DNA of 64,000 bases from an uncultured Chloroflexia bacterium (GTDB lineage: Bacteria; Chloroflexota; Limnocylindria; QHBO01), in NCBI GenBank assembly GCA_963805645.1, contig CAWDVA010000006.1, positions 192,078 through 256,077 on the forward strand, written 5' to 3'. Position numbers and translations under genes: made by a program. How positions within the stretch are numbered: the stretch's first letter is position 1; the number at the start of each line of letters is the position of its first letter. Positions 6,810 through 23,548 of this stretch are shown here, piece by piece. Below the pieces are notes generated by a model. That model did no database searches. It saw only the letters and a list, made by a program, of their open reading frames with translations, and was not told the DNA's origin.

Positions 6810-9800
6810 ATGGCATCCCGCGACACGATCGACTCGAAACCGGTCGCCGGGGACGAGCTCCCCGACGACCTGAACCTGATCAACGCCGGGTATATCGCCC
6901 AGCTCTACGAGGCGTACCGGGCGGATCCGGCGTCCGTTGACCCGGAGTGGCGCACGCGCTTCGACGCCGGGTTCGCCGGCATGGAGCCCCTGGCAGCCGC
7001 ACCGCCGACCACCGACGGGTCCGGCGGCGAAGCGTCTTCGGCAGACGCGGCGCCCCCGGCGGAGCAGGCCCTGCCACCCGGCGCCACCCCCATTCGCGGC
7101 CCCGCGGTTCGGCTGGTGACGAACATGACCGCATCGCTGGGCGTGCCCACCGCCACGAGCTTCCGCGACCTCGAGGTGAGCATCCTGGAAGCGCGCCGGC
7201 GCGAGCTCAACGCCCAGGTCGCGCCGCGCAAGGTGAGCTTCACGCACCTGATCGGCTACGCCATCGTCCGTGCCGCCGCCGAGCAGCGGACCATGACACA
7301 TGCCTTCGCGGAGACGGCCGACGGCCAGCCCCTGCGCATGGACCCCGGGACGCTCAACCTGGGCCTGGCGGTGGACGTGGAGCGGCCGGACGGCGGCCGC
7401 TTCCTGGTGGTCCCCGTCATCAAGGGCGCGGACGACATGGACTTCGCCGCCTTCCATGCCCGCTACGAGGAGCTGGTCGCCGGCGCGCGCACCAACCGCC
7501 TCTCGCCAGACGACTTCGCGGGCGGGACCATCACCCTGACCAACCCGGGGACGCTGGGGACCACGGCGTCGGTCCCACGGCTCATGGCAGGCCAGGGCAC
7601 CATCGTGGCCACCGGCGCCATCCGCTCGCTGGCCGGGTCACGGTTGATGACCATCACCAGCACCTATGACCACCGCATCATCCAGGGCGCGGAGTCCGGC
7701 CTGTTCCTGCGGCGCATCGACGACGCGCTGGCGGGGCGCGACGGCTTCTACGAGGAGGTCTTCGCCGCCATGGGCGCTGCCCTCGGTCCGGCGCCGGCGC
7801 CGGCGCCGGAGTCGCTGACCGCCGCGCCACCGGTTTCTGCCGCCCCGACGCAGCCGGCCCCGGCTCCCGGAGCTGCGGCGGACGACCTGCGCCACATGGC
7901 CGCGGCCATGGCCCTGGTGGGCGCCTATCGCCTCTACGGCCACCTGGGCGCCACGCTGGATCCGCTGGGCGGCGATCCGCCGGGCGATCCGGCCCTCGAT
8001 CCGGCCTTCCATGGCCTGACACCGGAGATCATGGACCGCATCCCCGCCGGACAGCTGGGCGTCCATGTCGGCGGCGAGACGTTGAGCGAGGTGCTGGCCG
8101 CCCTGCGCCGCACGTACACCGGCACCATCGCCTACGAGGTCGAGCATCTCGGCAACCACGCCGAGCGCGCCTGGCTGCGGCGGGTGATCGAGTCCGGCGC
8201 GCATCGAGCCCCGCTGACCGCCGACGAGCAGCGACGCCTGCTCGAGCGCCTGACCGCCGTGGAGGGGCTGGAGCGCTTCCTCCATCGGGCCTACCTGGGC
8301 CAGAAGCGGTTCAGCATCGAGGGCCTGGACGCCATGGTGCCCATGCTCGACCTGATCCTGGAGATGGGGGCCGCGCAGGGAACCCGGCGCGCGGTGATCG
8401 GCATGGCGCATCGCGGCCGCCTCAACGTCCTCGCCCACACGGTGGGGATGAGCTACGACGCGATCCTGGCCGAGTTCGAGGCCGGGCGCCCGGACGAGGC
8501 GGTCATGCCCGACACCGAGGCGGACGACGTCAAGTACCACCTGGGCGCCGACGGCGTCTTTCCCTGCACCGCGGGCGAGGTCGCCGTCTCGGTGATGCCC
8601 AACCCGTCCCACCTCGAAGCGGTGGACCCCGTGGTCGAGGGGCGCGCCCGCGCCGAGCAGACGGACCGCTCGGCCTCACCCGCGAGGGTGGACACGCGCC
8701 GCACCCTGCCGATCCTGATCCACGGCGACGCGGCCTTCGCGGCGCAGGGCGTGGTGGCCGAGTCGTTCAACCTGTCGCGGCTCCCCGGGTATGCCAACGG
8801 CGGGACCGTCCACATCATCGGCAACAACCAGATCGGCTTCACCACCGGCGCCGACGAGGCGCGCTCCACCACCTACTCGTCGGACCTGGCCAAGGGGTTC
8901 GACGTGCCCATCGTCCACGTCAACGCCGACGACCCGGAGGCGTGCCTGGCGGCCGCGCGCCTGGCCATGCTCTACCGCGCCGAGTTCGACGCGGACATGG
9001 TCATCGACCTGGTGGGCTACCGCCGCTACGGCCATAACGAGGGCGACGAGCCGGCCTACAGCCAGCCGATCATGTACGAGAAGATCGCGACGCATCCCAG
9101 CGTGCGCGATCGGTACCTCGAACGCCTGGTCGCCGATGGCATCGTCAACGCGGACCAGGCGGCGGAGGACGCCAAGGCGCTCGCGCGGGCGTTCGCCAAG
9201 CGCCAGGCAGCGGTGCGCAAGCGCGCCACGGAGCCCGCGCTCGACCGCGGGACGGACGCGCTCCCGCGCGATGGCGGTGCAGACCCGGAGACCGCCGTCC
9301 CCGCCGACGTGCTGCGCTCGCTCAACGACCAGCTGCTCAGCTGGCCGGACGGGTTCAGCATCAACACCAAGCTCGAGCGACAGCTGGAGCGGCGACGCGG
9401 CGCGTTCGATGCGGACGAGCCGCGCATCGAGTGGGGGCACGCGGAGTCGCTGGCGCTGGGCTCGCTGCTCCTGGAAGGGACGCCCATCCGCCTCTCGGGG
9501 CAGGACAGCGTGCGCGGCACGTTCTCGCAGCGCCACCAGACCCTGGTCGACACCCAGACCGGCGAGCGCTACACGCCCATCCAGCACCTCGACGGTGCAC
9601 GGGCCAGCTTCGAGCTGCACAACTCCCCCCTGAGCGAGTACGCGGCGCTGGGCTTCGAGTACGGGTACGCCGTCACCGCGCCCGAGGCGCTGGTGCTCTG
9701 GGAGGCACAGTACGGCGACTTCGCCAACGGGGCGGAGATCATCATCGACCAGTTCCTCATTGCCGGGCTGGCCAAGTGGCGCCAGACGTCACGGCTCACG

Positions 9801-13414: not shown

Positions 13415-15055
13415 TCAGTCGGCCGGAGAAAGGCGACCGGCGATCACGGCCTCCGCGGCGGCCCCGCTCTGCGGGTAGCCGGTCACCACCTCGAGGAACG
13501 GCACCCGCTCGAGCGCCAGGAGCTCCGTCTCGGCGACGGCCACCACAGATGCGGTGCGCGGCACGTCGCGCAGCAGCGCGATCTCCCCGAACCCCTCGCC
13601 CGGACCGAGCTCGCGGACCGGCTCCCCGTCCACGAGGACGCGGACCCGTCCCTCCGCGACGACGTAGTACCGATCCCCCGGCTCGCCCTGGCGGATGATC
13701 TCGGCGCCGGTGTCTGCATGAGCGGGGACCAGGTTGGCTGCCAGCCGCTCGAGCACGAGCGCGGAGAGCGGCGCGAAGATCGGGATGTCGCGGAGCAGGG
13801 TCAGCTCCACGAGGTGGACCTCCGAGGCCATGTCGATCTCCCGGAGGGAGCGGGCCGCGAGGAGGACGGCAACCGGCAGCAGCAGACCGGTGAGCACGAA
13901 GGCGCCATGGGGTCCGAGCGCCGCCACCACGAGGGAGGCTCCCATGGAGCCGGCCGCCAGCGACGCCATGCTGACCCCCTCGAGGACCCCGAAGATCCGG
14001 GCCAGCATGGCGTGCGGTGCGACGCGCTGCAGCAGGGTGCGCCCGGCGACGTCCATCACGCTGCGGCCGGCGCCTGCGACCATCAGGAGCGAGACCGCAA
14101 GGAGCAGGCTCGACGAAACGCCCAGGAAGGCGAGCGGCAGTCCGTAGACCATGGCGCCCAGGCCGTACGGGACGGCGAGCCTCGGACGGCCGATGAGCGT
14201 CACGGTGAGCGCCACTCCCAGCAGTCCGCCCGCGCCGATCACCGCGCCGAGGTAGCCGACGGCGGGATCGTCGAGGGAGAGCAATTCGAGCGCGAGGACC
14301 ACCACGAGGACGTCCATGGCTCCCCACACCACGTCGGAAAGGGCGAAGAGTCCGGCGACCGGGCGGAGCCGTCCGGGCCCGAGCAACGCCCCGAACCCGT
14401 CCACCAGGGCGGCGACGGGACGGCCACGCACGCCGGCCCCCGCGCCGGCGGGCACGGCAGTCCTTCCCACGGCCAGGGCGACCAGCGCGCCGGAGGCGAG
14501 GACGACGGCACCGAAGACGGCGAAGACCGGCGCGATGCCGCCGATGGCCAGGCCCAGCCCGGCGAGACCGGGGCCGACGAGGAGCGACCCGTTCTCGATG
14601 ATCCCGCTCGTGACGTTCGCGGCGGTGAGCTCGGCCGGGGTATCGGCGAGTGCCGGGATGAGGGCCGCCTGGAGCGGACGGGTCAGGGTCATCGCGGCGT
14701 TCGCCAGCGCCGCGAGGGCGTACACCGGAACGACCGGCAGGCCGGCGCCGATGGCGGCCGCGAGCGCGATGATCGACGTGCCCTGGAGCACGTACGCGAG
14801 CACGAGCATCCGGTCCCGGCGGTATCGGTCCCCCAGCACGGCGGCAACCGGCGCCAGGACGGCCGCCGGCGCGAGCTGGACGAGCACGGCGATGCCGACT
14901 CCGGTGGCCCCGCCCACGTTGAAGGCGTAGACCAGCATCCCGATCCACTCGACCCACTCGGCGAGGGCGAATCCCAGGTACGCCGCCTCGATCGCGGCGA
15001 TGCGCCGATTCCGCAGCACCGCGAGGAGCACGCTGAGCGACGCACCGAGCGCCAT
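13415..15055 (-). CDS. MFS transporter fused to C-terminal CAP-type cyclic-nucleotide-binding domain
   Basis: The N-terminal about 400 aa are highly hydrophobic with 12 TM segments. The C-terminus carries GEGFGEIALL...RTASVVA, the cNMP-binding cassette. Confidence 0.8.
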   Translation of the reverse strand: MALGASLSVLLAVLRNRRIAAIEAAYLGFALAEWVEWIGMLVYAFNVGGATGVGIAVLVQLAPAAVLAPVAAVLGDRYRRDRMLVLAYVLQGTSIIALAAAIGAGLPVVPVYALAALANAAMTLTRPLQAALIPALADTPAELTAANVTSGIIENGSLLVGPGLAGLGLAIGGIAPVFAVFGAVVLASGALVALAVGRTAVPAGAGAGVRGRPVAALVDGFGALLGPGRLRPVAGLFALSDVVWGAMDVLVVVLALELLSLDDPAVGYLGAVIGAGGLLGVALTVTLIGRPRLAVPYGLGAMVYGLPLAFLGVSSSLLLAVSLLMVAGAGRSVMDVAGRTLLQRVAPHAMLARIFGVLEGVSMASLAAGSMGASLVVAALGPHGAFVLTGLLLPVAVLLAARSLREIDMASEVHLVELTLLRDIPIFAPLSALVLERLAANLVPAHADTGAEIIRQGEPGDRYYVVAEGRVRVLVDGEPVRELGPGEGFGEIALLRDVPRTASVVAVAETELLALERVPFLEVVTGYPQSGAAAEAVIAGRLSPAD

Positions 15056-15059
15056 GGGC

Positions 15060-16187
15060 TCAGCTCCGTCCGTGTGCGGCGAGGACTTCGATCAGCCGAT
15101 CGTGCGGGAGGGCGTGAGCGGTGATCCCGTCCCTCCCGGTCATGGTGTGGGCGGCGAGCAGCGCGTTGACGATGGCCTCCTCCGTGGCCTCGATGGCCGC
15201 CCAGAAGAGCGGCCCCAGGCGGTCGTCGCGCACGGCCGAGACGTCGTAGGTCGGGCCACTCCCGGGCGCCGCGGTATCCACCGAGGCGTTGCCGGTGGCG
15301 AAGGCGATCACCAGGTCCCCGCTCGAAGGCTCCCCGGCGCCGCCCGCCCGACCGATGCCCAGCGCCGGACGCTGGGCGAGGCGAGTGCACTGGTGGGAAA
15401 GGAGCGGCGCGTCGGTGGCAACCACCACGATGATGGACCCTGCGCCCGGTGGGGCCGATGAGCCGGGCAGGGGCACCACCTCGGGGCCGATCGCCTCGCC
15501 GACCGGCACGCCGGCGACGCTCAGGCGCGAGCGCCGGCCGTAGTTGGCCTGGACCAGGACGCCCACCGTGTAGCCGCCATCGGCCACCGGAATGACGCGC
15601 GACGCGGTGCCGATGCCACCCTTGAAGCCGTGGCAGATCATCCCGGTGCCGCCGCCCACGTTTCCCTCGGGCACGCGGCCGGGCGCGGCCGCCGCCCAGG
15701 CCTCCTCGAGGTGAGCCGCGGTGACGTGGAACCCGTCGATGTCGTTCAGGACGCCGTCCCAGGTCTCGCCCACCACCGGAAGCGACCAGAGCCGTGCGTC
15801 CGCGCCCCGCTCCCGTCGCTCGAGGGCGATGAGCGCATCCCGCACCGTGCCGACCGAATGCGTGTTCGTCAGCGCAACCGGTGACGTCAGCAGGCCTGCC
15901 TCGCGAACCCACTCCAGCCCGGTGAGCTCCCCGTTGCCGTTGAGCCGATGGCATCCGGCGAAGGCGGGCCGTGGCCAAGGTTCTCCGGGTGGCACCACGA
16001 CCGTGACCCCGGTTCGGACCGGACCGGCGCCGACCCGGAGCGGTCCGTCGCCGCGCTCGATGGTGGCGTGCCCGACCCGGACGCCGGCGACGTCGGTGAT
16101 GGCGTTGGCCGGACCGGGGTCGAGCTGGCCGATGCGAACGCCGAGATCGCGCGCCCGGGCGGGCGGGTCCCGGTCAGTCGATGCCAT
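15060..16187 (-). CDS. DmpA/S58-family self-processing L-aminopeptidase-like protein
   Basis: N-terminal GxLxPGPANAITDVAGVRVGH signature and internal GGGTG. Confidence 0.75.
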   Translation of the reverse strand: MASTDRDPPARARDLGVRIGQLDPGPANAITDVAGVRVGHATIERGDGPLRVGAGPVRTGVTVVVPPGEPWPRPAFAGCHRLNGNGELTGLEWVREAGLLTSPVALTNTHSVGTVRDALIALERRERGADARLWSLPVVGETWDGVLNDIDGFHVTAAHLEEAWAAAAPGRVPEGNVGGGTGMICHGFKGGIGTASRVIPVADGGYTVGVLVQANYGRRSRLSVAGVPVGEAIGPEVVPLPGSSAPPGAGSIIVVVATDAPLLSHQCTRLAQRPALGIGRAGGAGEPSSGDLVIAFATGNASVDTAAPGSGPTYDVSAVRDDRLGPLFWAAIEATEEAIVNALLAAHTMTGRDGITAHALPHDRLIEVLAAHGRS

Positions 16188-16635
16188 CGTCGCCGGCGCG
16201 GTTCGTCACCGCGACGCCGGAACCGACGATCAGCACGCTGAATGTCAGCGTGGGCGCGTCCGGCGGCAGGTCGTCCTGTCCCTGGAGCTCGATCGCGAGG
16301 CCCTGGGTCAGGCCGCGACGCACGACCTCCACGCGGCAGCCGGCGGGGAGTCGGATCGCCACGCCGGACATGAGGGTGGTGACCTCCAGGCGGGCGCCCC
16401 CGGGGGCGAGCTGCACCCCGCTCAGGTCCAGGTCGGCGCCCGCGAACCAGGTCGCAAACGTTCCGCCGCGGAACGCGGAGGCGCGGCTGCGGAGGGCGAG
16501 GCTGTCGGCAATGACCACCAGGGCCAGCTCGTCGCTCGTCTCGTCCCCGTGGGAGGGGATCAGGGCCCGCGCCGCCAGGGCCGAGCCGATCAGACCGGTG
16601 AAGATGCCCAGGGCGAAGAGGAGAATCCGGCGCAT
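16174..16635 (-). CDS. small membrane-anchored protein (N-terminal TM, beta-rich C-domain; LiaF-like?)
   Basis: MRRILLFALGIFTGLIGSALAA is a transmembrane anchor. The gene overlaps the downstream start by 14 nt. It sits between a REC gene and a peptidase gene. Confidence 0.5.
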   Translation of the reverse strand: MRRILLFALGIFTGLIGSALAARALIPSHGDETSDELALVVIADSLALRSRASAFRGGTFATWFAGADLDLSGVQLAPGGARLEVTTLMSGVAIRLPAGCRVEVVRRGLTQGLAIELQGQDDLPPDAPTLTFSVLIVGSGVAVTNRAGDDGID

Positions 16636-16639
16636 GGCG

Positions 16640-17038
16640 TCATGCTAGGGCCTTGCACCCGCACGCGGCCAGTGCCGCTGCCACGAACTCCTCCGGTGCC
16701 GACGCCTTTGGCAGGTAGCCGTCCGCGCTGGCCAGCAGGGCGGGGCGCTCGAGCGCATCGGACCAGCCCATCAGGATCACGCTGGCGCCCGGGGCCAGGA
16801 CACGCGCGGCGCCGATCAGGGCCTCGCCGGCATCGATCTCGGGGAGGCGCGGGTCCACGAGCACAAGCGACGGTTGCAGCTCCTCCACGACGGCCAGCGC
16901 CCGGGGAACGTCGCCCGCGGTGACGACGACCGGAACGCCGGCCAGGGCGAGCAGGTCGGCGAGGGACTGTCGAACCCGACGGTCGGCGTCAACGACGACG
17001 ATCCGCAGATCCTGGACGGGGTCTCCTTGATGGGGCAC
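16640..17038 (-). CDS. stand-alone response-regulator receiver (CheY-like) protein
   Basis: IVVVDAD...LVLVDPRLPE...YLPK show the acidic pocket, phospho-Asp and conserved Lys. There is no output domain. Confidence 0.7.
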   Translation of the reverse strand: MPHQGDPVQDLRIVVVDADRRVRQSLADLLALAGVPVVVTAGDVPRALAVVEELQPSLVLVDPRLPEIDAGEALIGAARVLAPGASVILMGWSDALERPALLASADGYLPKASAPEEFVAAALAACGCKALA

Positions 17039-17100
17039 GTGCCCATTCTTCGCCTGGACGCTCGCGCGCGCGTCGGCCGAGTAGCGGTGGCGGCGCTACG

Positions 17101-20100
17101 TCATTCGGCCGAGGACCCGGCCGAGGGCGCCGGCTCGGTCTCGTCAGCGGACTCGGCGGGGATGCGCCAGGTCACGCTCACCGCGGTGCCGTGTCCGGGC
17201 CGGCTGGTGACCGCGAACTCCGCCCCGATCCGCTCCGCCCGCTGGCGCATGCCGACCAGTCCCAGGTGGCCACGCGGCGTGTTGGCGGGGTCGAAGCCGA
17301 TGCCGTCATCGGTCACCGACAGGCGGATCTCGCCGCCGATGCGGGCCAGCAGGATCCGCGCCGACGAGGCGTTCGCGTGCTTGACGACGTTGTGGAGGGC
17401 TTCCTGCCCGATGCGATAGAGGGTCTCCTCCGCCTCGGAGGGCAGGCGCTCGGGGAGCCCCGTGTCGGCCTCCACGGTGACGGAGAGCCCGGTCCTGCCC
17501 TGCACCGCGGCGGCGTGGGTGCGCAGGGCCTGCTCCAGCCCGTCCTGCTCCAGGCTCTTCGGCCGGAGCTCGAAGATGAGCGTGCGCATCTCGGCCAGCG
17601 CGTCCTTCTGGAGGTCCCGCAGCTCCGCCAGCTTCCCGCGGGCGGCGCCCGGGTCCTGGTCCAGCAGCAGCTCGAGCGAGCGCATGGTGAGACCCATGCT
17701 GAAGAGCGCCTGGGTGACGCTGTCATGCAGCTCGCGCGCGAGGTTGCCGCGCTCCTGGGACGCTGCGATCTCCGCCGCCTGGGCGCGCAGGTCCACTTCG
17801 AGGCGCTCGCGGACGCTGATGTCTCGGACCGCGCCGTGCGCGCCGACGACCTTGCCGTCGACGATTTCCGCGATCCCCGTCGTCTCGGCGGGGATGGGAT
17901 GGCCGTCGCGATGCCGCAGATGGAAGCGGATCATGAGGTCCGGCTCGGTGTTGTCCACCATCCGCTGCCACTCCTCGTTCACGCGGTTCCCGCTGTCGGG
18001 GTGGACCAGGATGCGGAAGTGCTTGCCCACCAGCTCCTCGGCCTTCCAGCCGGAGAGGCGCTCGATGGTCTCGGAGAAGTACGTCAGCGTCCCGTCGGCG
18101 CGCGCGGACCAGATCGTGTCCGGCGAGTTCTCAACCAGGTGCCGGTAGCGGCGCTCGCTGCTCTCGACCTGTGCCCACAGCCGCGCGTTGCTGACCGCCA
18201 CCGCGGCCTGGTTGGCCAGGGTTCCCAAAAGCTCCGCGTCGTCCGCGTCCCACGCGTCGGGGCGCTGCGCGTCCATGAGCATGGCGCCCAGCCAGCCGTG
18301 CTCCCCGATCAGCGGCGCCGCCAGCACGGAATGGATGCCCTGGTCCCTCACCCAGGCGTCGGCTTCCGGCGAGTGCCTGAACCCCGGGTCGTTCAGGTAG
18401 TCCCCGGTGACGACCACGCGACCCTCGATCAGGGCCCTTCCGGCGATGCCCTGGTCCGGCTCGTCGAGGTCGGGCGAATCCGGGGGCGGCGCATCGGTCG
18501 GGCGACCGAACGTGTGGGCCAGCCGCAACCCCGGGCCGGGCTCGGTGACGAGGTCCATCTCGCCGCCATCGGCCTTGAGCAGTCGGGCCGCCTCGTCCAC
18601 CGTGCGCTGGAGGATGACCGCCGGATCGCGCATGGCCGTCAGCTGCCGGGCGATCTCCGACAGCGTCTGCTGCGCGTCGACCCGGCGTGCCAGCTCATCG
18701 GTCTGCCGGCGAAGGTCGTTCTCCAGCGTGACCCGCTCGCTGATGTCGCGGGTAGACCCGTGCACGCCCACGAACGCGCCGTCGCGCTCGATCCCGATGG
18801 CGCGCGTCTCGACGGGGACCACGCCACCGCCCTTGCGCATCAGCCCGAAGTCGACGCGTCGCTCGGTCGAAGGGTCCGAGACGATCGCCGCCCACTCCGC
18901 GCCGATCGCGTCGAGCGACTCGGGAGCGATGATGCTCATGAACGGCCTGCCGACCAGCTTGTCCGGCTCCCAGCCCGCGATGGCGGCGATGGCGTCGGAG
19001 ACGAAGGTGAAGGCGCCGTCGGCGTCGATCTCGTAGATGATGTCCGGCGCCTGCTCCACCAGGAACCGATAGCGGCGCTCCGACTCGTGGATCTGCTCCA
19101 CCAGGGTCGCGTTCGACAGGGCGATGGCACCCTGGTCTGCGAGGCGCTGGAGAAGGTCCAGCTGCTCCGGGTCGATCGAGCACGGCTTGCGGTACGAGAC
19201 CGCCAGGGTGCCGAGAATCTCGCCGCCGGGCGCGCGAAGCGGCGCGACCGCCATGCCGCGCAGGCCCATCCGCTCCGCGGTGTGCTGGTCGTCGGCCTCG
19301 TGGGGGATGCGCGGGTCGACCATGTAGTCCTCGGTCCACACCGCCCTGCCCAGCGACGCCGCGAGACCGTTCATCCCGCCGGCCACCGGGAAGGCCTGCG
19401 ACGCCAGCCAGCGCCGCGTGCGGGCGTCCGTCCCGCCAGCGATGACCCGTGGCCGCAGGAACGCGCCGGAGCCGTCGGGCACGGTCAGGTGCGCGCCGTC
19501 GGAGGCGAGGAGGCGATGCGCGGCGTCCACCACCTCCTGCAGAACCTCGGCCGGGTGACGCAGGGCGGTGATCCGGGCCGCGATCTCGCCAAGCGTGCGC
19601 TGGGCCTCGACCCGCCGCGCCAGCTCGTCCGCGCGCCGCCGCAGGTCCTCCTGCAGCCGCTCGTTGGCAAGCGTCACGGCGGCGTGGTTGGCGAGCGCCC
19701 TCAGGAGCCCGAGCTGCGCCGGATCGAAGGTGTGCGCCCGTCCGATGAAGACTCCCAGCGCCCCGAGGGACTCCCCGTCGGCGACGAGCGGCGCAACGGC
19801 CATGGCCCGCATCCCGGCGGTCTCCACGATCTGGTCCGCCACGTCGGAATGGGTGAATCCCGCGTCGTTGGGGTAGTCCTCGGTGGTGACCAGCTCCGCG
19901 CGGGCGAACGCGGTGCCGAACATGCCGACGCCCACAGGGAGAGTCAGCCCGTGGATCAGGCGACGGGCGGTGCGGTTGCGGATCCCCGCATCCCGCGCGA
20001 ACCGCAGCACGTTCGCATCCGCGTCGTACAGGTAGATCATCGCGCCGTCCGCCTGGAGCAGGCGCGCAGCTTCCTCGGCGGCGCCCTTCAGCACCGCGGA

Positions 20101-20151
20101 GACGCTCGCTGCGTGATCGGTTGGTCTGAAGCGGCGGCTCGGCTCGCCCAT
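17101..20151 (-). CDS. cytoplasmic multi-sensor histidine kinase: GAF-GAF-PAS-GAF-PAS-HisKA_3-HATPase_c
   Basis: 1016 aa with no TM segment. A C-terminal HDSVTQALFSMGL H-box (NarX/LiaS type) and an ATPase region with GLVGMRQRAERIGAEF. GAF/PAS spacing is seen around the ERRYRFLVE and ERRYRHLVE PAS linkers. Confidence 0.85.
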   Translation of the reverse strand: MGEPSRRFRPTDHAASVSAVLKGAAEEAARLLQADGAMIYLYDADANVLRFARDAGIRNRTARRLIHGLTLPVGVGMFGTAFARAELVTTEDYPNDAGFTHSDVADQIVETAGMRAMAVAPLVADGESLGALGVFIGRAHTFDPAQLGLLRALANHAAVTLANERLQEDLRRRADELARRVEAQRTLGEIAARITALRHPAEVLQEVVDAAHRLLASDGAHLTVPDGSGAFLRPRVIAGGTDARTRRWLASQAFPVAGGMNGLAASLGRAVWTEDYMVDPRIPHEADDQHTAERMGLRGMAVAPLRAPGGEILGTLAVSYRKPCSIDPEQLDLLQRLADQGAIALSNATLVEQIHESERRYRFLVEQAPDIIYEIDADGAFTFVSDAIAAIAGWEPDKLVGRPFMSIIAPESLDAIGAEWAAIVSDPSTERRVDFGLMRKGGGVVPVETRAIGIERDGAFVGVHGSTRDISERVTLENDLRRQTDELARRVDAQQTLSEIARQLTAMRDPAVILQRTVDEAARLLKADGGEMDLVTEPGPGLRLAHTFGRPTDAPPPDSPDLDEPDQGIAGRALIEGRVVVTGDYLNDPGFRHSPEADAWVRDQGIHSVLAAPLIGEHGWLGAMLMDAQRPDAWDADDAELLGTLANQAAVAVSNARLWAQVESSERRYRHLVENSPDTIWSARADGTLTYFSETIERLSGWKAEELVGKHFRILVHPDSGNRVNEEWQRMVDNTEPDLMIRFHLRHRDGHPIPAETTGIAEIVDGKVVGAHGAVRDISVRERLEVDLRAQAAEIAASQERGNLARELHDSVTQALFSMGLTMRSLELLLDQDPGAARGKLAELRDLQKDALAEMRTLIFELRPKSLEQDGLEQALRTHAAAVQGRTGLSVTVEADTGLPERLPSEAEETLYRIGQEALHNVVKHANASSARILLARIGGEIRLSVTDDGIGFDPANTPRGHLGLVGMRQRAERIGAEFAVTSRPGHGTAVSVTWRIPAESADETEPAPSAGSSAE

Positions 20152-20162
20152 GGGTGCTCGCC

Positions 20163-21413
20163 TCAGGTCGCCATTCCGTGCTCGACGGCCCAGAGTGCCG
20201 CCTGGGTGCGGCTGGCCAGCGCCAGCTTCCCGAGGATGTTGCTCACGTGGGTCCGGGCCGTTCGTTCGGTGATCCCCAGGGCGTGGGCGATCTCCTTGTT
20301 GCTCGAGCCCCTGGCCAGGTGCGCGAGAACTTCCTTCTCCCGGTCGGTGAGCGGCTCAACCGGCTGCTCCGTCTTGCGGGCGCGCAGGCGCTGCGCCAGC
20401 ATCCGCGCCACGGCCGCGTCCAGGTGCACCTCGCCGGCGTGGGCCGCGCGGATCGCGTTGGCGACCTCGTCCGCATCGGCGTCCTTGAGCAGGTACCCCG
20501 ACGCGCCGGCTTCCAGCGCCGATGTCACCTTCTGCTCCTCGATGAAGCTCGTGACGGCCACGATCTCGACGCCCGGCCGCGACTCCTTGATCTTGCCGAT
20601 GGCGGTGATGCCGTCCATCTTCGGCATGAGCAGGTCCATCAGGATGACGTCCGGCTGCAGCCGGTCCGCCAGCGCGACCGCCTCCTCGCCGTCCTCCGCC
20701 TCCCCCACCACCTCGATGTCGCGGAGCAGCTCCAGGAACCCCTTCAACCCCCGCCGGACGACCGCGTGGTCGTCGACCAGCATGACCCGGATCGGGCCTT
20801 CGTCGCTCACGTCCTCCATCTCCCTCGGCGCGTACGCGGTGCTCATGGGCAGGTCGGGCGCGGGAAGCACCGCATGTGCAGTATGCAGGAGCTGGTAGAC
20901 GTGCACCGGTTCGGTGATGTCGCGAAGCCGGTGGGTGCCCAGGTCCCGTGGCCGGAGCTCGTCCGGCAGCCGGCCGGCGGCCACGGCCAGCACGGCCTCG
21001 CTGATGAGCGTCTCGCCCCCATGCGCCAGGCTGAGGATGCGCGCGGCGCGGAAGAGCGGCGGGCCAAAGAACCGGTCGCCACGACGCTGCGCATCGCCCG
21101 TGTCGAGCGCGGCGCGCACGCGCAGGTGCCCCACATCCCCCCAATCGGCCTCGAGCAGGTCGCGCGCGAGCTCGATGGCGGCCATCACGGCTTCCGCGCC
21201 ATCGTCGAAGGCGGCGTAGGCCGCATCACCGACACGCTCGAAGACTCGGCCGCCGTGGCGTTCCACGGCTTCGGCGACGTACGCCTGGTGGCGCGCGAGG
21301 ACCTCGGCTGCCCGCTCCGGGAAGCGCTCCGAGATGCGCGTGCTTCCTTCGACATCGGTGAACAGGAAGGTGATGGGCGTTGGGCGTTGGGCGGTTTCCA
21401 CGGCAGGGAGCAT
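20163..21413 (-). CDS. response regulator with N-terminal class III nucleotidyl-cyclase homology domain, receiver and LuxR/NarL HTH (CHD-REC-HTH)
   Basis: FLFTDVEGST, ERVGDAAYAAF and GPPLFRAARIL...ITEPVHVYQL make up the CHD. IRVMLVDDHAVVRRGL and ILMDLLMP form the REC. LTDREKEVL...LGITERTARTHVSNILGKL is the LuxR HTH. ATG at 21413 (MLPAVE). The track ORF carries an implausible Arg-rich 146-aa extension. Confidence 0.75.
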   Translation of the reverse strand: MLPAVETAQRPTPITFLFTDVEGSTRISERFPERAAEVLARHQAYVAEAVERHGGRVFERVGDAAYAAFDDGAEAVMAAIELARDLLEADWGDVGHLRVRAALDTGDAQRRGDRFFGPPLFRAARILSLAHGGETLISEAVLAVAAGRLPDELRPRDLGTHRLRDITEPVHVYQLLHTAHAVLPAPDLPMSTAYAPREMEDVSDEGPIRVMLVDDHAVVRRGLKGFLELLRDIEVVGEAEDGEEAVALADRLQPDVILMDLLMPKMDGITAIGKIKESRPGVEIVAVTSFIEEQKVTSALEAGASGYLLKDADADEVANAIRAAHAGEVHLDAAVARMLAQRLRARKTEQPVEPLTDREKEVLAHLARGSSNKEIAHALGITERTARTHVSNILGKLALASRTQAALWAVEHGMAT

Positions 21414-21566
21414 ACCGTCGGACCCCCGGGGCCTGTCCCCGGCCGAATGACGTAGACGGGCATGGGCGAAAGAGCCGGGCCGCGTTCGGGACCCATGGCC
21501 GACGCGCCGGAGACCACGGCAGGCGACCATGGCGCCATCAACAGCACCGAGACGGAGGACGAACCG

Positions 21567-21770
21567 ATGTACGCGACAGCACGCATTGCCGACGCGCTCA
21601 TCACCCCGCCGATTCCCTCGCCACAGCCCCGGTACGTCGCCCGGGCCGACGACGAGGAGCCGCCGGTCCGCTCGACCACGAGCGTCCGGCAGGTCCGGCG
21701 GACGATCGAGGGCGCGGCGGCGGCCGCGTGGCTCGCCTTCGTGCCGAGGATGCGCAACAACCCGCGCTGA
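21567..21770 (+). CDS. small hypothetical protein (67 aa)
   Basis: A GGAGGA Shine-Dalgarno sequence lies 7 nt before ATG 21567. The ORF sits in the divergent intergenic region between the signalling operon and tag. Weak support. Confidence 0.25.
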   Translation: MYATARIADALITPPIPSPQPRYVARADDEEPPVRSTTSVRQVRRTIEGAAAAAWLAFVPRMRNNPR

Positions 21771-21992
21771 CGACCGCGCCAGGCGCCGGCTGACGGCCGC
21801 GCCGGGGGCGCTCCGCGACACGAACGCAGCCGAGACGAATACCCGACACACCCGAACGGCGGGCCCGGCCGAGGGCCCGCCCGTCCCGTCGTCCCGGAAG
21901 GGCCTGGCCCCGCGCCTTCCCGGAATTTCGACCGGCTATCCTCGTGACTCGTGAGCACCGCCGCACCCATAACCGCACCGCCCGAGAGCCAC

Positions 21993-22574
21993 ATGCGCTG
22001 CGCCTGGGCCCCGTTGGACGACCCGGCATACCTCGCCTACCACGACACCGAGTGGGGCGTGCCTCTGCACGACGAGCGGCGGCTCTTCGAGATGCTCGTC
22101 CTGGAGGGCGCGCAGGCGGGGCTTTCGTGGGCGACCATCCTGCACCGCCGCGAGGGCTACCGACGCGCGTTCGCCGGCTTCGACCCGGAGTCAGTGGCGC
22201 GCTTCGGACCCGATGACGAGGCGCGGCTGCTCGCCGACGCTGGCATCGTCCGCAACCGGGCAAAGGTCCGCGCCGCCATCGGCAACGCGCGCGCCTGGCT
22301 CGCCCTTCGCGAGGCCGGCATCGATCCGGTGTCCCACCTGTGGTCGTTCGTCGGCGGCGCGCCGAGGGTGAACGACTGGCGGACCGTGGCCGAGATGCCT
22401 GCCGAGACCGATGCCTCCCGGGCGATGTCGCGAGACCTGCGATCGCACGGGTTCGCCTTCGCGGGCCCGACCATCTGCTACGCGTTCATGCAGGCGACGG
22501 GGATGGTCAACGACCACGTGGTGGGCTGCTTCCGGCATCGGCAGCTCTCCACGCCCGGGCGGACGGACGGCTGA
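21993..22574 (+). CDS. tag: DNA-3-methyladenine glycosylase I
   Basis: MRCAWAPLDDPAYLAYHDTEWGVP...ICYAFMQATGMVNDHVVGCF aligns with E. coli Tag, including the zinc-binding Cys/His residues. Confidence 0.85.
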   Translation: MRCAWAPLDDPAYLAYHDTEWGVPLHDERRLFEMLVLEGAQAGLSWATILHRREGYRRAFAGFDPESVARFGPDDEARLLADAGIVRNRAKVRAAIGNARAWLALREAGIDPVSHLWSFVGGAPRVNDWRTVAEMPAETDASRAMSRDLRSHGFAFAGPTICYAFMQATGMVNDHVVGCFRHRQLSTPGRTDG

Positions 22575-22618
22575 GCGGACCGACACCCGGGGACGACCCG
22601 CGGATACACTCGCCGCAC

Positions 22619-23548
22619 ATGACCGCCCTGACCCGCATCGCCAGCGTGGAGGTCCCCGCCAGCTCCGCGAACCTGGGGAGTGGCTTCGATGCGTTTGCCG
22701 CCGCGCTCTCGCTCAAGCTGCGCGGGGAGCTGCACCGGGGCGACGAGCCGGGGATCCTGCTCACCGCTCGCGGCGAGGGCGCCCCGCCCGATGACGCCGA
22801 CCCCGAGGAGAACCTGGTGATCCGCGCGTTCCGGGCGGGGCTGCGCGCCGCCGGCGGTGCTCCGGGCGGGGCCGGGTCGTGGCGGATCGAGGTCGCCTCC
22901 ATGATTCCGGCTGCCCGCGGCCTGGGGAGCAGCGCGGCGGCCATCGTCGCGGGCCTGCTGCTGGGAACGGCGGCCGGTCGGCGATCGCCGCACCCGGACG
23001 AGATCCTCGCCCTGGCCGCGGACCTGGAGGGACACCCGGACAACGTGGCCGCCACCCTCTACGGCGGCATCACCCTGGCGGTGACCAACCGGAACGCGCC
23101 GGCCACCCTGCGACGGTTCCGCCCGCCCGAGCGCTGGATCCCGGTCGTCTTCATCCCGGTGACGGAGAGCCGGACCCACGAGATGCGGGCCGTCCTGCCC
23201 AATGTCGTGAGCCTGGCCGATGCCACGGCCCAGGCGGCCCACGCCGCCCTCCTCGCCACCGCGATCGCCACGGCCGACGCCGCCCTGCTGCGGAACGCGA
23301 TGGACGATCGGCTCCATCAGCCGTACCGGCTCGCCCGGCTGGAGGAGAGCAGGCGCCTGATCGAGGTCGCCTACGAGCACGGGGCGTCCGGCGCCTGCCT
23401 CTCCGGCGCCGGCCCCAGCGTCCTGGCCATCTGCGACTCTCCCGCGATGGCGCACGGCGTGGAAAAGGCGTTCAACGCGGCCGGCGTGCGCGGGATGGCG
23501 ACCCGGCTGCGTTTCGACGAGATCGGCGCGCGCATCACCACTGCCTGA
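22619..23548 (+). CDS. thrB: homoserine kinase (GHMP family)
   Basis: PASSANLGSGFD N-terminal motif and the GHMP ATP loop PAARGLGSSAAA. ATG at 22619. Confidence 0.85.
   Translation: MTALTRIASVEVPASSANLGSGFDAFAAALSLKLRGELHRGDEPGILLTARGEGAPPDDADPEENLVIRAFRAGLRAAGGAPGGAGSWRIEVASMIPAARGLGSSAAAIVAGLLLGTAAGRRSPHPDEILALAADLEGHPDNVAATLYGGITLAVTNRNAPATLRRFRPPERWIPVVFIPVTESRTHEMRAVLPNVVSLADATAQAAHAALLATAIATADAALLRNAMDDRLHQPYRLARLEESRRLIEVAYEHGASGACLSGAGPSVLAICDSPAMAHGVEKAFNAAGVRGMATRLRFDEIGARITTA

Follow-up and report, generated by a model that had tools for sequence, protein, structure and literature searches.

In PleD (REC-REC-GGDEF), phosphorylation of the receiver drives dimerization, which assembles a nucleotide-cyclase active site from two subunits. 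In the mycobacterial protein Rv0386, the base-specifying pair is reportedly the non-canonical Gln/Asn. Work cited in PMC3466318 describes Rv0386 as active, with substrate bound by an alternative mechanism. Here we describe a response regulator encoded in a 64-kb stretch of contig CAWDVA010000006.1 from an uncultured Chloroflexia bacterium (hereafter the window), in which a class III cyclase homology domain (CHD) is followed by a linker, a receiver (REC) and a helix-turn-helix (HTH) DNA-binding domain. The reading we favour, held with a confidence evenly balanced against doubt, is that of a dual-output NarL-family regulator carrying a specificity-switched cyclase that is assembled by phosphorylation-driven dimerization.

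Several characterized cyclases depart from the canonical active site. The Mycobacterium avium cyclase Ma1120 is active with Ala164 at the position of the transition-state Asn, and the A164N substitution lowers its adenylyl cyclase (AC) activity by ~90% at pH 7.5 and abolishes its guanylyl cyclase (GC) activity (PMC4215837). The K101E mutant is still active, and its GC activity is raised; of the K101E/D157X double mutants, those for which values are reported (C, T, G) also stay active (PMC4215837). A Glu/His pair is found in a Dictyostelium GC (PMC4215837). Additionally, Pycsar cyclases are active with the Asp pair kept and unrelated specificity residues (PMC11224242), and in a model of the cGMP-forming PfPucC the two base-specifying positions are occupied by Glu118 and Lys195 (bioRxiv 10.64898/2026.08.12.744502).

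Domain architecture and conservation of the fusion

The regulator is encoded in a single uninterrupted frame of 416 codons with no internal stops, ending in a TGA codon at 20163-20165 (Table 1). Because many homologues begin V/M-(E/D/Q)-T-A, a GTG codon at 21401 (V5) may be the true start rather than the ATG at 21413. A longer GTG open reading frame (ORF) extending to 21851 receives no support from the homologues.

The order CHD-REC-HTH, which had been proposed in a preliminary description made from the sequence alone, is borne out by Pfam matches to Guanylate_cyc (residues 8-93), Response_reg (residues 210-322, E 1e-28) and GerE (PF00196; residues 354-409, E 8e-19). The first of these matches is borderline, scoring 22.1 bits where the cut-off is 21.9. 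However, the CHD assignment holds despite this score because a phmmer search of PDB sequences matches Ma1120 with an E-value of 1e-17 and other class III cyclases next, and because the modelled CHD superposes on Ma1120 with a TM-score of 0.90-0.92 and an rmsd of ~2 A (Foldseek). In the AlphaFold2 model, a monomer built on 33 homologues, predicted confidence (pLDDT) exceeds 90 over residues 12-177, drops to less than 50 in linker residues 180-204, and is high again in the REC-HTH portion. Sequence and fold thus both place the N-terminal domain in the CHD superfamily, whose members have a palm-like beta-alpha-beta-beta-alpha-beta fold.

The REC-HTH portion superposes on structures of NarL, LiaR and VraR at up to 49% identity, with a TM-score of 0.80 against closed NarL (1a04; Foldseek). 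The acidic pair (D214, D215), the phospho-acceptor D260, T288 and K310 of the receiver are all invariant in the homologue alignment (A1), and together with the C-terminal GerE HTH these are the features of NarL/FixJ response regulators. Matches to NarL-like NCBIfam models fall below the equivalog cut-offs. The linker is variable in both length and sequence, and corresponds to the hypervariable columns of the same alignment.

The best 120 homologues listed, drawn from JGI, ENA, NCBI and Logan assemblies, are 62-92% identical to the regulator, mostly over 96-100% of its length, and all have the CHD-REC-HTH order. They occur mostly in metagenome-assembled genomes (MAGs) of Limnocylindria (Chloroflexota); the genome matches are uncultured Chloroflexia and Candidatus Limnocylindria MAGs. 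An identical protein is recorded in NCBI/ENA on a 404-kb contig. When compared with the three closest loci (dS 0.5-0.8), dN/dS is 0.08-0.16 for the CHD at dS 0.6-0.8, ~0.05 for REC-HTH and 0.2-0.9 for the linker. The CHD-REC-HTH fusion is therefore genuine and under purifying selection.

A precomputed match to PF00211 exists in ~11 of the 120 listed homologues. JGI labels such proteins 'NarL/FixJ response regulator / class 3 adenylate cyclase', while NCBI labels them only 'response regulator'. We found no paper in the open-access literature text describing this architecture. The novelty claimed for it must still be qualified, since the proteins are common in metagenomes and already carry the JGI label. 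In the closest genome homologue (L003, CAVXEH010000003.1) a frameshift is present in the HTH region at ~9107-9125, where tblastn gives two segments that overlap; the protein called there, P0124, has 391 amino acids (aa) and lacks GerE. Either an assembly error or recent pseudogenization accounts for the frameshift.

Table 1. Features of the regulator gene and its neighbours in the window.
Feature	Position	Strand	Basis
Response regulator CHD-linker-REC-HTH, whole gene, 416 aa	20163..21413	-	ORF call
Class III CHD, residues 12-177	20883..21380	-	Ma1120 match, Foldseek, pLDDT
CHD codon D20	21354-21356	-	
CHD codon E59	21237-21239	-	
CHD codon D63	21225-21227	-	
CHD codon R114	21072-21074	-	
CHD codon F121	21051-21053	-	
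CHD codon R125	21039-21041	-	
Flexible linker, residues 178-206	20796..20882	-	Low pLDDT, hypervariable columns, dN/dS
Receiver (REC), residues 207-325	20439..20795	-	Pfam Response_reg
REC phospho-acceptor D260	20634-20636	-	
LuxR/GerE HTH DNA-binding domain, residues 354-409	20187..20354	-	Pfam GerE PF00196
Soluble histidine kinase, 1016 aa, GAF-GAF-PAS-GAF-PAS-HisKA_3-HATPase	17101..20151	-	Pfam
Stand-alone receiver, 132 aa, third cluster gene	16640..17038	-	Pfam Response_reg, E 4e-11
Major facilitator superfamily (MFS) transporter with C-terminal cyclic-nucleotide-binding domain	13415-15055	-	PF00027, E 1e-18

Residues at the catalytic positions of the CHD

The motifs quoted in the preliminary description are all present, as FLFTD20VEG, FE59RVGD63AAY and GPPLF121RAAR125IL. 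Canonical close relatives, which are 42-51% identical, carry VKTTGDG and GDYFGPPLNRAARL, and the corresponding query segments FERVGDA and DRFFGPPLFRAARIL align to them without gaps. The metal-binding Asp pair is retained as D20 and D63, both in the motifs quoted for them in the preliminary description, and the alignment with the canonical relatives agrees with that description that the Lys position reads Glu (E59) and that the transition-state Asn is replaced by Phe (F121). The transition-state Arg (R125) and the basic residue that contacts the gamma-phosphate (R164) are also retained. However, the loss of the Asp of the GDTVN motif, to which the description had attached meaning, concerns position 118, which is outside the six catalytic residues and outside the conserved columns of the canonical relatives. 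The Asp that is truly lost had gone unnoticed: the base-specifying residue (D1018 in mammalian AC, D157 in Ma1120) is R114 here.

The pair E59 and R114 corresponds neither to the canonical ATP pair (Lys/Asp) nor to the canonical GTP pairs (Glu with Cys, Ser, Thr, Gly, His or Ala). Glu59 is of the GC type, and relatives linked to STAND ATPases have Glu/His, a known GC pair. R125 is invariant, and the Asn position is Phe or Tyr throughout the class described below; active Ma1120 likewise lacks the Asn.

CHD domains pooled from all searches, 414 in total, were aligned to a hidden Markov model (HMM), and seven positions were read in each. Two main classes were apparent, a canonical DKDDNR(R/K) class and a variant DED(R/H)(F/Y)R(R/K) class to which 190 of the domains belong. 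E59, R/H114, F/Y121 and Y66 are present in 100% of the variant domains, whereas position 66 varies among canonical domains. D20 and D63 are invariant both in alignment A1 and in all 190 variant domains, and D20, G62, D63, R100, G117, R125 and R/K164 are equally conserved in the two classes. Variant domains have a mean identity of 0.52 to one another, and canonical domains one of 0.54. In a distance analysis with the four defining columns removed, the nearest neighbour of 92 of 94 variant domains was another variant domain. Among the 150 closest representatives of 50%-identity clusters, some of which have two CHDs, variant domains account for about a quarter (41 of 173).

The invariant replacements, the equal conservation of the ligands, the nearest-neighbour result and the similar within-class identities form the pattern of one coherent clade in which a different pocket has been selected, rather than that of pseudo-enzymes drifting after loss of function. 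By analogy with characterized enzymes, the loss of Lys, Asp and Asn cannot by itself be read as inactivity. We infer that the changes from Lys to E59, from Asp to R114 (His in the STAND-linked relatives) and from Asn to F121, together with Y66, represent a switch of specificity and not a loss of function. The switch is most likely towards GTP, and a Glu with a basic residue is compatible with a guanine pocket because this is the combination modelled in PfPucC. The CHD had been called probably catalytically degenerate, a view that finds no support in a signature fixed in 190 domains, conserved ligands, the low dN/dS of the CHD and the activity of Ma1120 without the Asn. The GTP-directed activity that the same description had allowed in a side remark appears to be the likelier reading.

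Modularity of the CHD and its genomic context

Regulators that consist of REC-HTH without a CHD are found in related Limnocylindria at the same genomic position, and are 78-81% identical to the query over REC-HTH. They are flanked by tag and homoserine kinase genes on one side and by the kinase, the stand-alone receiver, an S58 peptidase and the MFS transporter with the cyclic-nucleotide-binding domain on the other. An HMM search of the upstream gaps and of the whole loci detected no CHD remnants, which rules out a decaying or relocated CHD at these loci. Several of the CHD-less orthologues (L005-L014 and L062) have ~1-1.3 kb of unassigned sequence between tag and the receiver start, and the regulator and kinase are 0.8-2.7 kb apart where the kinase was mapped (L005, L006, L009, L011-L013 and L062). 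In a neighbour-joining tree of the receivers, computed without bootstrap, CHD-less forms are nested among CHD-bearing forms, and forms lacking the HTH occur at at least three places. The receiver is the constant core, and the CHD and HTH behave as separable modules flanking it.

The variant CHD is also N-terminal in proteins of ~900 aa with NB-ARC/STAND ATPase and TPR domains (CHD-NB-ARC/STAND-TPR). We scanned nine ERF-class non-regulator proteins, of which six are ~700-1040 aa long with TPR repeats and three are shorter without them; besides the N-terminal CHD, Pfam detects nothing in the nine but the NB-ARC/STAND ATPase and TPR repeats. Variant CHDs are likewise found in CHD-FHA proteins, and in CHD-REC proteins without an HTH, which are 310-340 aa long and stop shortly after the receiver. 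In all of these proteins the CHD is the sole domain detected by Pfam beyond the STAND, TPR, REC or FHA modules. The N-terminal domain of STAND proteins is normally the effector and is activated by oligomerization. These architectures therefore suggest an output role for the CHD, in which it does something when brought together.

One group of CHD-REC proteins (P0009, loci L081-L083) adjoins a kinase of the same GAF/PAS type, and the other locus examined (P0026, L084) has no kinase nearby. A canonical membrane-anchored class III adenylyl cyclase (KIKTIGDAYM, YDLWGDTVNTASRME) is also present at L081-L083 (e.g. L081:7606-8820, minus strand), convergent to the GAF/PAS kinase of the HTH-less protein, although its position may be a coincidence.

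In the window, the regulator is followed by a histidine kinase that starts 11 nt past its stop codon, with HisKA_3 at kinase residues 800-867. The kinase is directly downstream of the regulator in loci L001-L004 as well, and the stand-alone receiver is syntenic at CHD-bearing and CHD-less loci alike. A HisKA_3 partner kinase in the same operon is a further feature of the NarL/FixJ family, and the residues and gene order indicate that the regulator and kinase form a working NarL-type two-component system with an added N-terminal domain. The L004 contig (JAICUY010000003.1) has the full Limnocylindria-type synteny of tag, CHD-bearing regulator, kinase and stand-alone receiver but is binned as Steroidobacteraceae (Gammaproteobacteria), and is probably mis-binned.

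The MFS transporter gene, located three genes downstream of the cluster, was considered as encoding a receptor for a nucleotide product and rejected, as it is equally present at CHD-less loci. No second CHD was detected in the window or in loci L001-L014. An Rfam scan of 16000-23000 at E<=1 returned no match, and a promoter and terminator scan was uninformative in this DNA of 72% GC.

The intergenic region between the regulator start (21413) and the tag start (21951) contains a block of ~92 nt (21730-21821) that is almost invariant between the window and loci L001-L003, in contrast to the coding dS of 0.5-0.8 between those loci. Within this block the 21-nt sequence GCTGACGrCCGCGCCrGGsGC is directly repeated, with one copy at 21766-21786 and the next at 21789-21809 (23-nt spacing). 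The block could be an operator, a structured RNA (with no match in Rfam) or a terminator. It is overlapped by a small ORF on the plus strand (21567-21770, ~67 aa, MYATARIADAL...FVPRMRNNPR) that is preceded, at a distance of 7 nt, by the Shine-Dalgarno sequence GGAGGA. Both ends of this ORF are conserved in L001-L003, and its middle is deleted in L003.

Possible functions and comparison with described systems

If the protein is a dual-output regulator, the adjacent GAF/PAS HisKA_3 kinase would phosphorylate D260, and the resulting dimerization of the receiver would free the HTH domains and pair them so that they bind DNA, as happens in NarL, LiaR and VraR. The same dimerization would unite two flexibly tethered CHDs, completing their interfacial active sites, and the paired CHDs would produce, or at least bind, a nucleotide, the most likely reaction being the conversion of GTP to cGMP. 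We propose induced proximity as the mechanism because it takes two subunits to complete a cyclase active site and the CHD is on a flexible linker. Catalysis, the preference for GTP and the coupling to phosphorylation are what we infer from this combination of domains and residues. More broadly, and only tentatively, with doubt slightly outweighing confidence, we suggest that the variant domains constitute an uncharacterized cyclase specificity class that makes cGMP or another non-cAMP nucleotide signal, or that uses the palm scaffold for a different nucleotidyl transfer, that the regulator is dual-output, and that the same chemistry is the output of the CHD-STAND-TPR, CHD-FHA and CHD-REC proteins with variant domains in uncultured soil Chloroflexota.

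Several observations weigh against a catalytic, dual-output regulator. The CHD is dispensable for the core pathway, because the kinase, the stand-alone receiver and the surrounding genes are all retained around the CHD-less positional orthologues. Nor does any cGMP-specific receptor or phosphodiesterase vary in step with the CHD. The linker between CHD and REC is disordered and poorly conserved, and any coupling would therefore be only by proximity. We know of no characterized counterpart for an Arg at the Asp position or for a bulky Phe or Tyr at the Asn position, and a salt bridge between E59 and R114 could fill the base pocket.

The leading alternative, already put forward in the preliminary description and possible though on balance unlikely, is that the CHD is a non-catalytic pseudo-cyclase that acts as a constitutive dimerization handle or as a nucleotide or ligand sensor tuning NarL-type DNA binding. 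Three of the six canonical catalytic positions (Lys, Asp and Asn) are non-canonical, the flexible linker suits tethering, and the CHD-less orthologues show that the pathway works without the domain. However, a pure dimerization handle has no need for invariant D20, D63, R125 and R/K164, nor for a pocket of invariant E59, R/H114, F/Y121 and Y66. A non-catalytic NTP sensor would also keep the metal and phosphate ligands. Both forms are opposed by the CHD-NB-ARC-TPR, CHD-REC and CHD-FHA proteins, in which the CHD is the only extra Pfam domain, and by Ma1120, the closest active enzyme, which lacks the Asn and tolerates the change of Lys to Glu and of Asp to other residues.

An arrangement in which the CHD is a C1-like metal-binding half-site, forming a heterodimer with a second CHD that supplies the Lys, Asp and Asn, is improbable. 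Retention of the Asp pair with loss of the other three residues does resemble the C1 half of heterodimeric cyclases such as mammalian AC, and related genomes do contain canonical CHD genes, such as that of the membrane cyclase beside the kinase in L081-L083. However, the window and loci L001-L014 offer no second CHD, Arg125 (transition state) and R164 (gamma-phosphate) belong to the C2 side and are retained, and mere loss does not explain the invariance of the replaced residues. Finally, a misassembly, or a pseudogenized cyclase remnant before a NarL-type regulator that starts at an internal Met, is barely credible: the borderline Pfam score and the CHD-less regulators at the same position could suggest it, but it is excluded for practical purposes by the unbroken frame of this gene and of the best 120 homologues listed, which come from many samples, by the low dN/dS and confident predicted fold of the CHD, and by the remnant-free CHD-less loci, which indicate clean presence or absence and not decay.

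Bacterial signalling by cGMP or other non-cAMP cyclic mononucleotides is known from only a few systems, to which the E-(R/H)-(F/Y) class, should it be active, would contribute a sizeable family of candidate enzymes. The regulator would then have two outputs flanking its receiver, transcription and a diffusible signal. If the class is inactive, it shows cleanly how strongly the 'dead' site of a pseudo-enzyme can be selected. The CHD is nearly invisible to Pfam, and censuses of domain architecture have therefore probably missed CHD-REC-HTH proteins. The natural series of CHD-REC-HTH, CHD-REC and REC-HTH proteins offers ready experimental controls: REC-HTH forms are positional orthologues of the full-length ones, and the CHD-REC proteins of one group have a kinase of this type next to them, though at another locus.

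Among described systems, Ma1120 (PDB entries 4wp3, 4wp8, 4wp9 and 5d0e) is the closest solved structure, at 31% identity. It shares with the query a compact CHD, the metal Asp pair, the transition-state Arg and the absence of the canonical Asn. However, it has the canonical Lys101 and Asp157 where the query has Glu59 and Arg114, and it is a stand-alone cyclase without REC or HTH. The Pycsar and Pucsar cyclases (PycC, PucC) also keep the metal Asp pair with different base-specifying residues, but they belong to a different clade and are paired with a CNBD-TIR or CNBD-TM effector gene, which the query is not. Membership in these systems was rejected: the PADLOC matches to PycC are weak and generic (E 1e-4, residues 15-79), no effector is adjacent, and the operon is a two-component one.

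The resemblance to REC-CHD regulators and to PleD is one of functional analogy, in that phosphorylation-driven dimerization would assemble a two-subunit cyclase site. In the query, however, the CHD comes first, a DNA-binding domain is added, and the connection is a disordered tether (residues 180-204) instead of a helical transducer. With NarL, LiaR and VraR the query shares a REC-GerE portion that is 40-49% identical, complete phospho-transfer residues and an adjacent HisKA_3 kinase. None of these regulators has a domain N-terminal to REC, and the query reaches no NCBIfam equivalog cut-off.

The mycobacterial CHD-ATPase-LuxR proteins (Rv0386, Rv1358, Rv2488c) resemble the query in their N-terminal CHD, which falls in the same broad clade and is carried on a signalling scaffold, and the CHD-STAND-TPR proteins found here share its variant E-(H/R)-(F/Y) signature. 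The query has no AAA/STAND ATPase between CHD and HTH. The distinction drawn in the preliminary description, between this architecture and both the REC-CHD regulators and the mycobacterial proteins, is therefore upheld, with the CHD preceding REC and no ATPase present. Whereas the Rv0386-type and CHD-NB-ARC-TPR proteins lack a receiver but contain a STAND/AAA ATPase, the query has REC in the place of the ATPase, where it would serve as the oligomerization switch.

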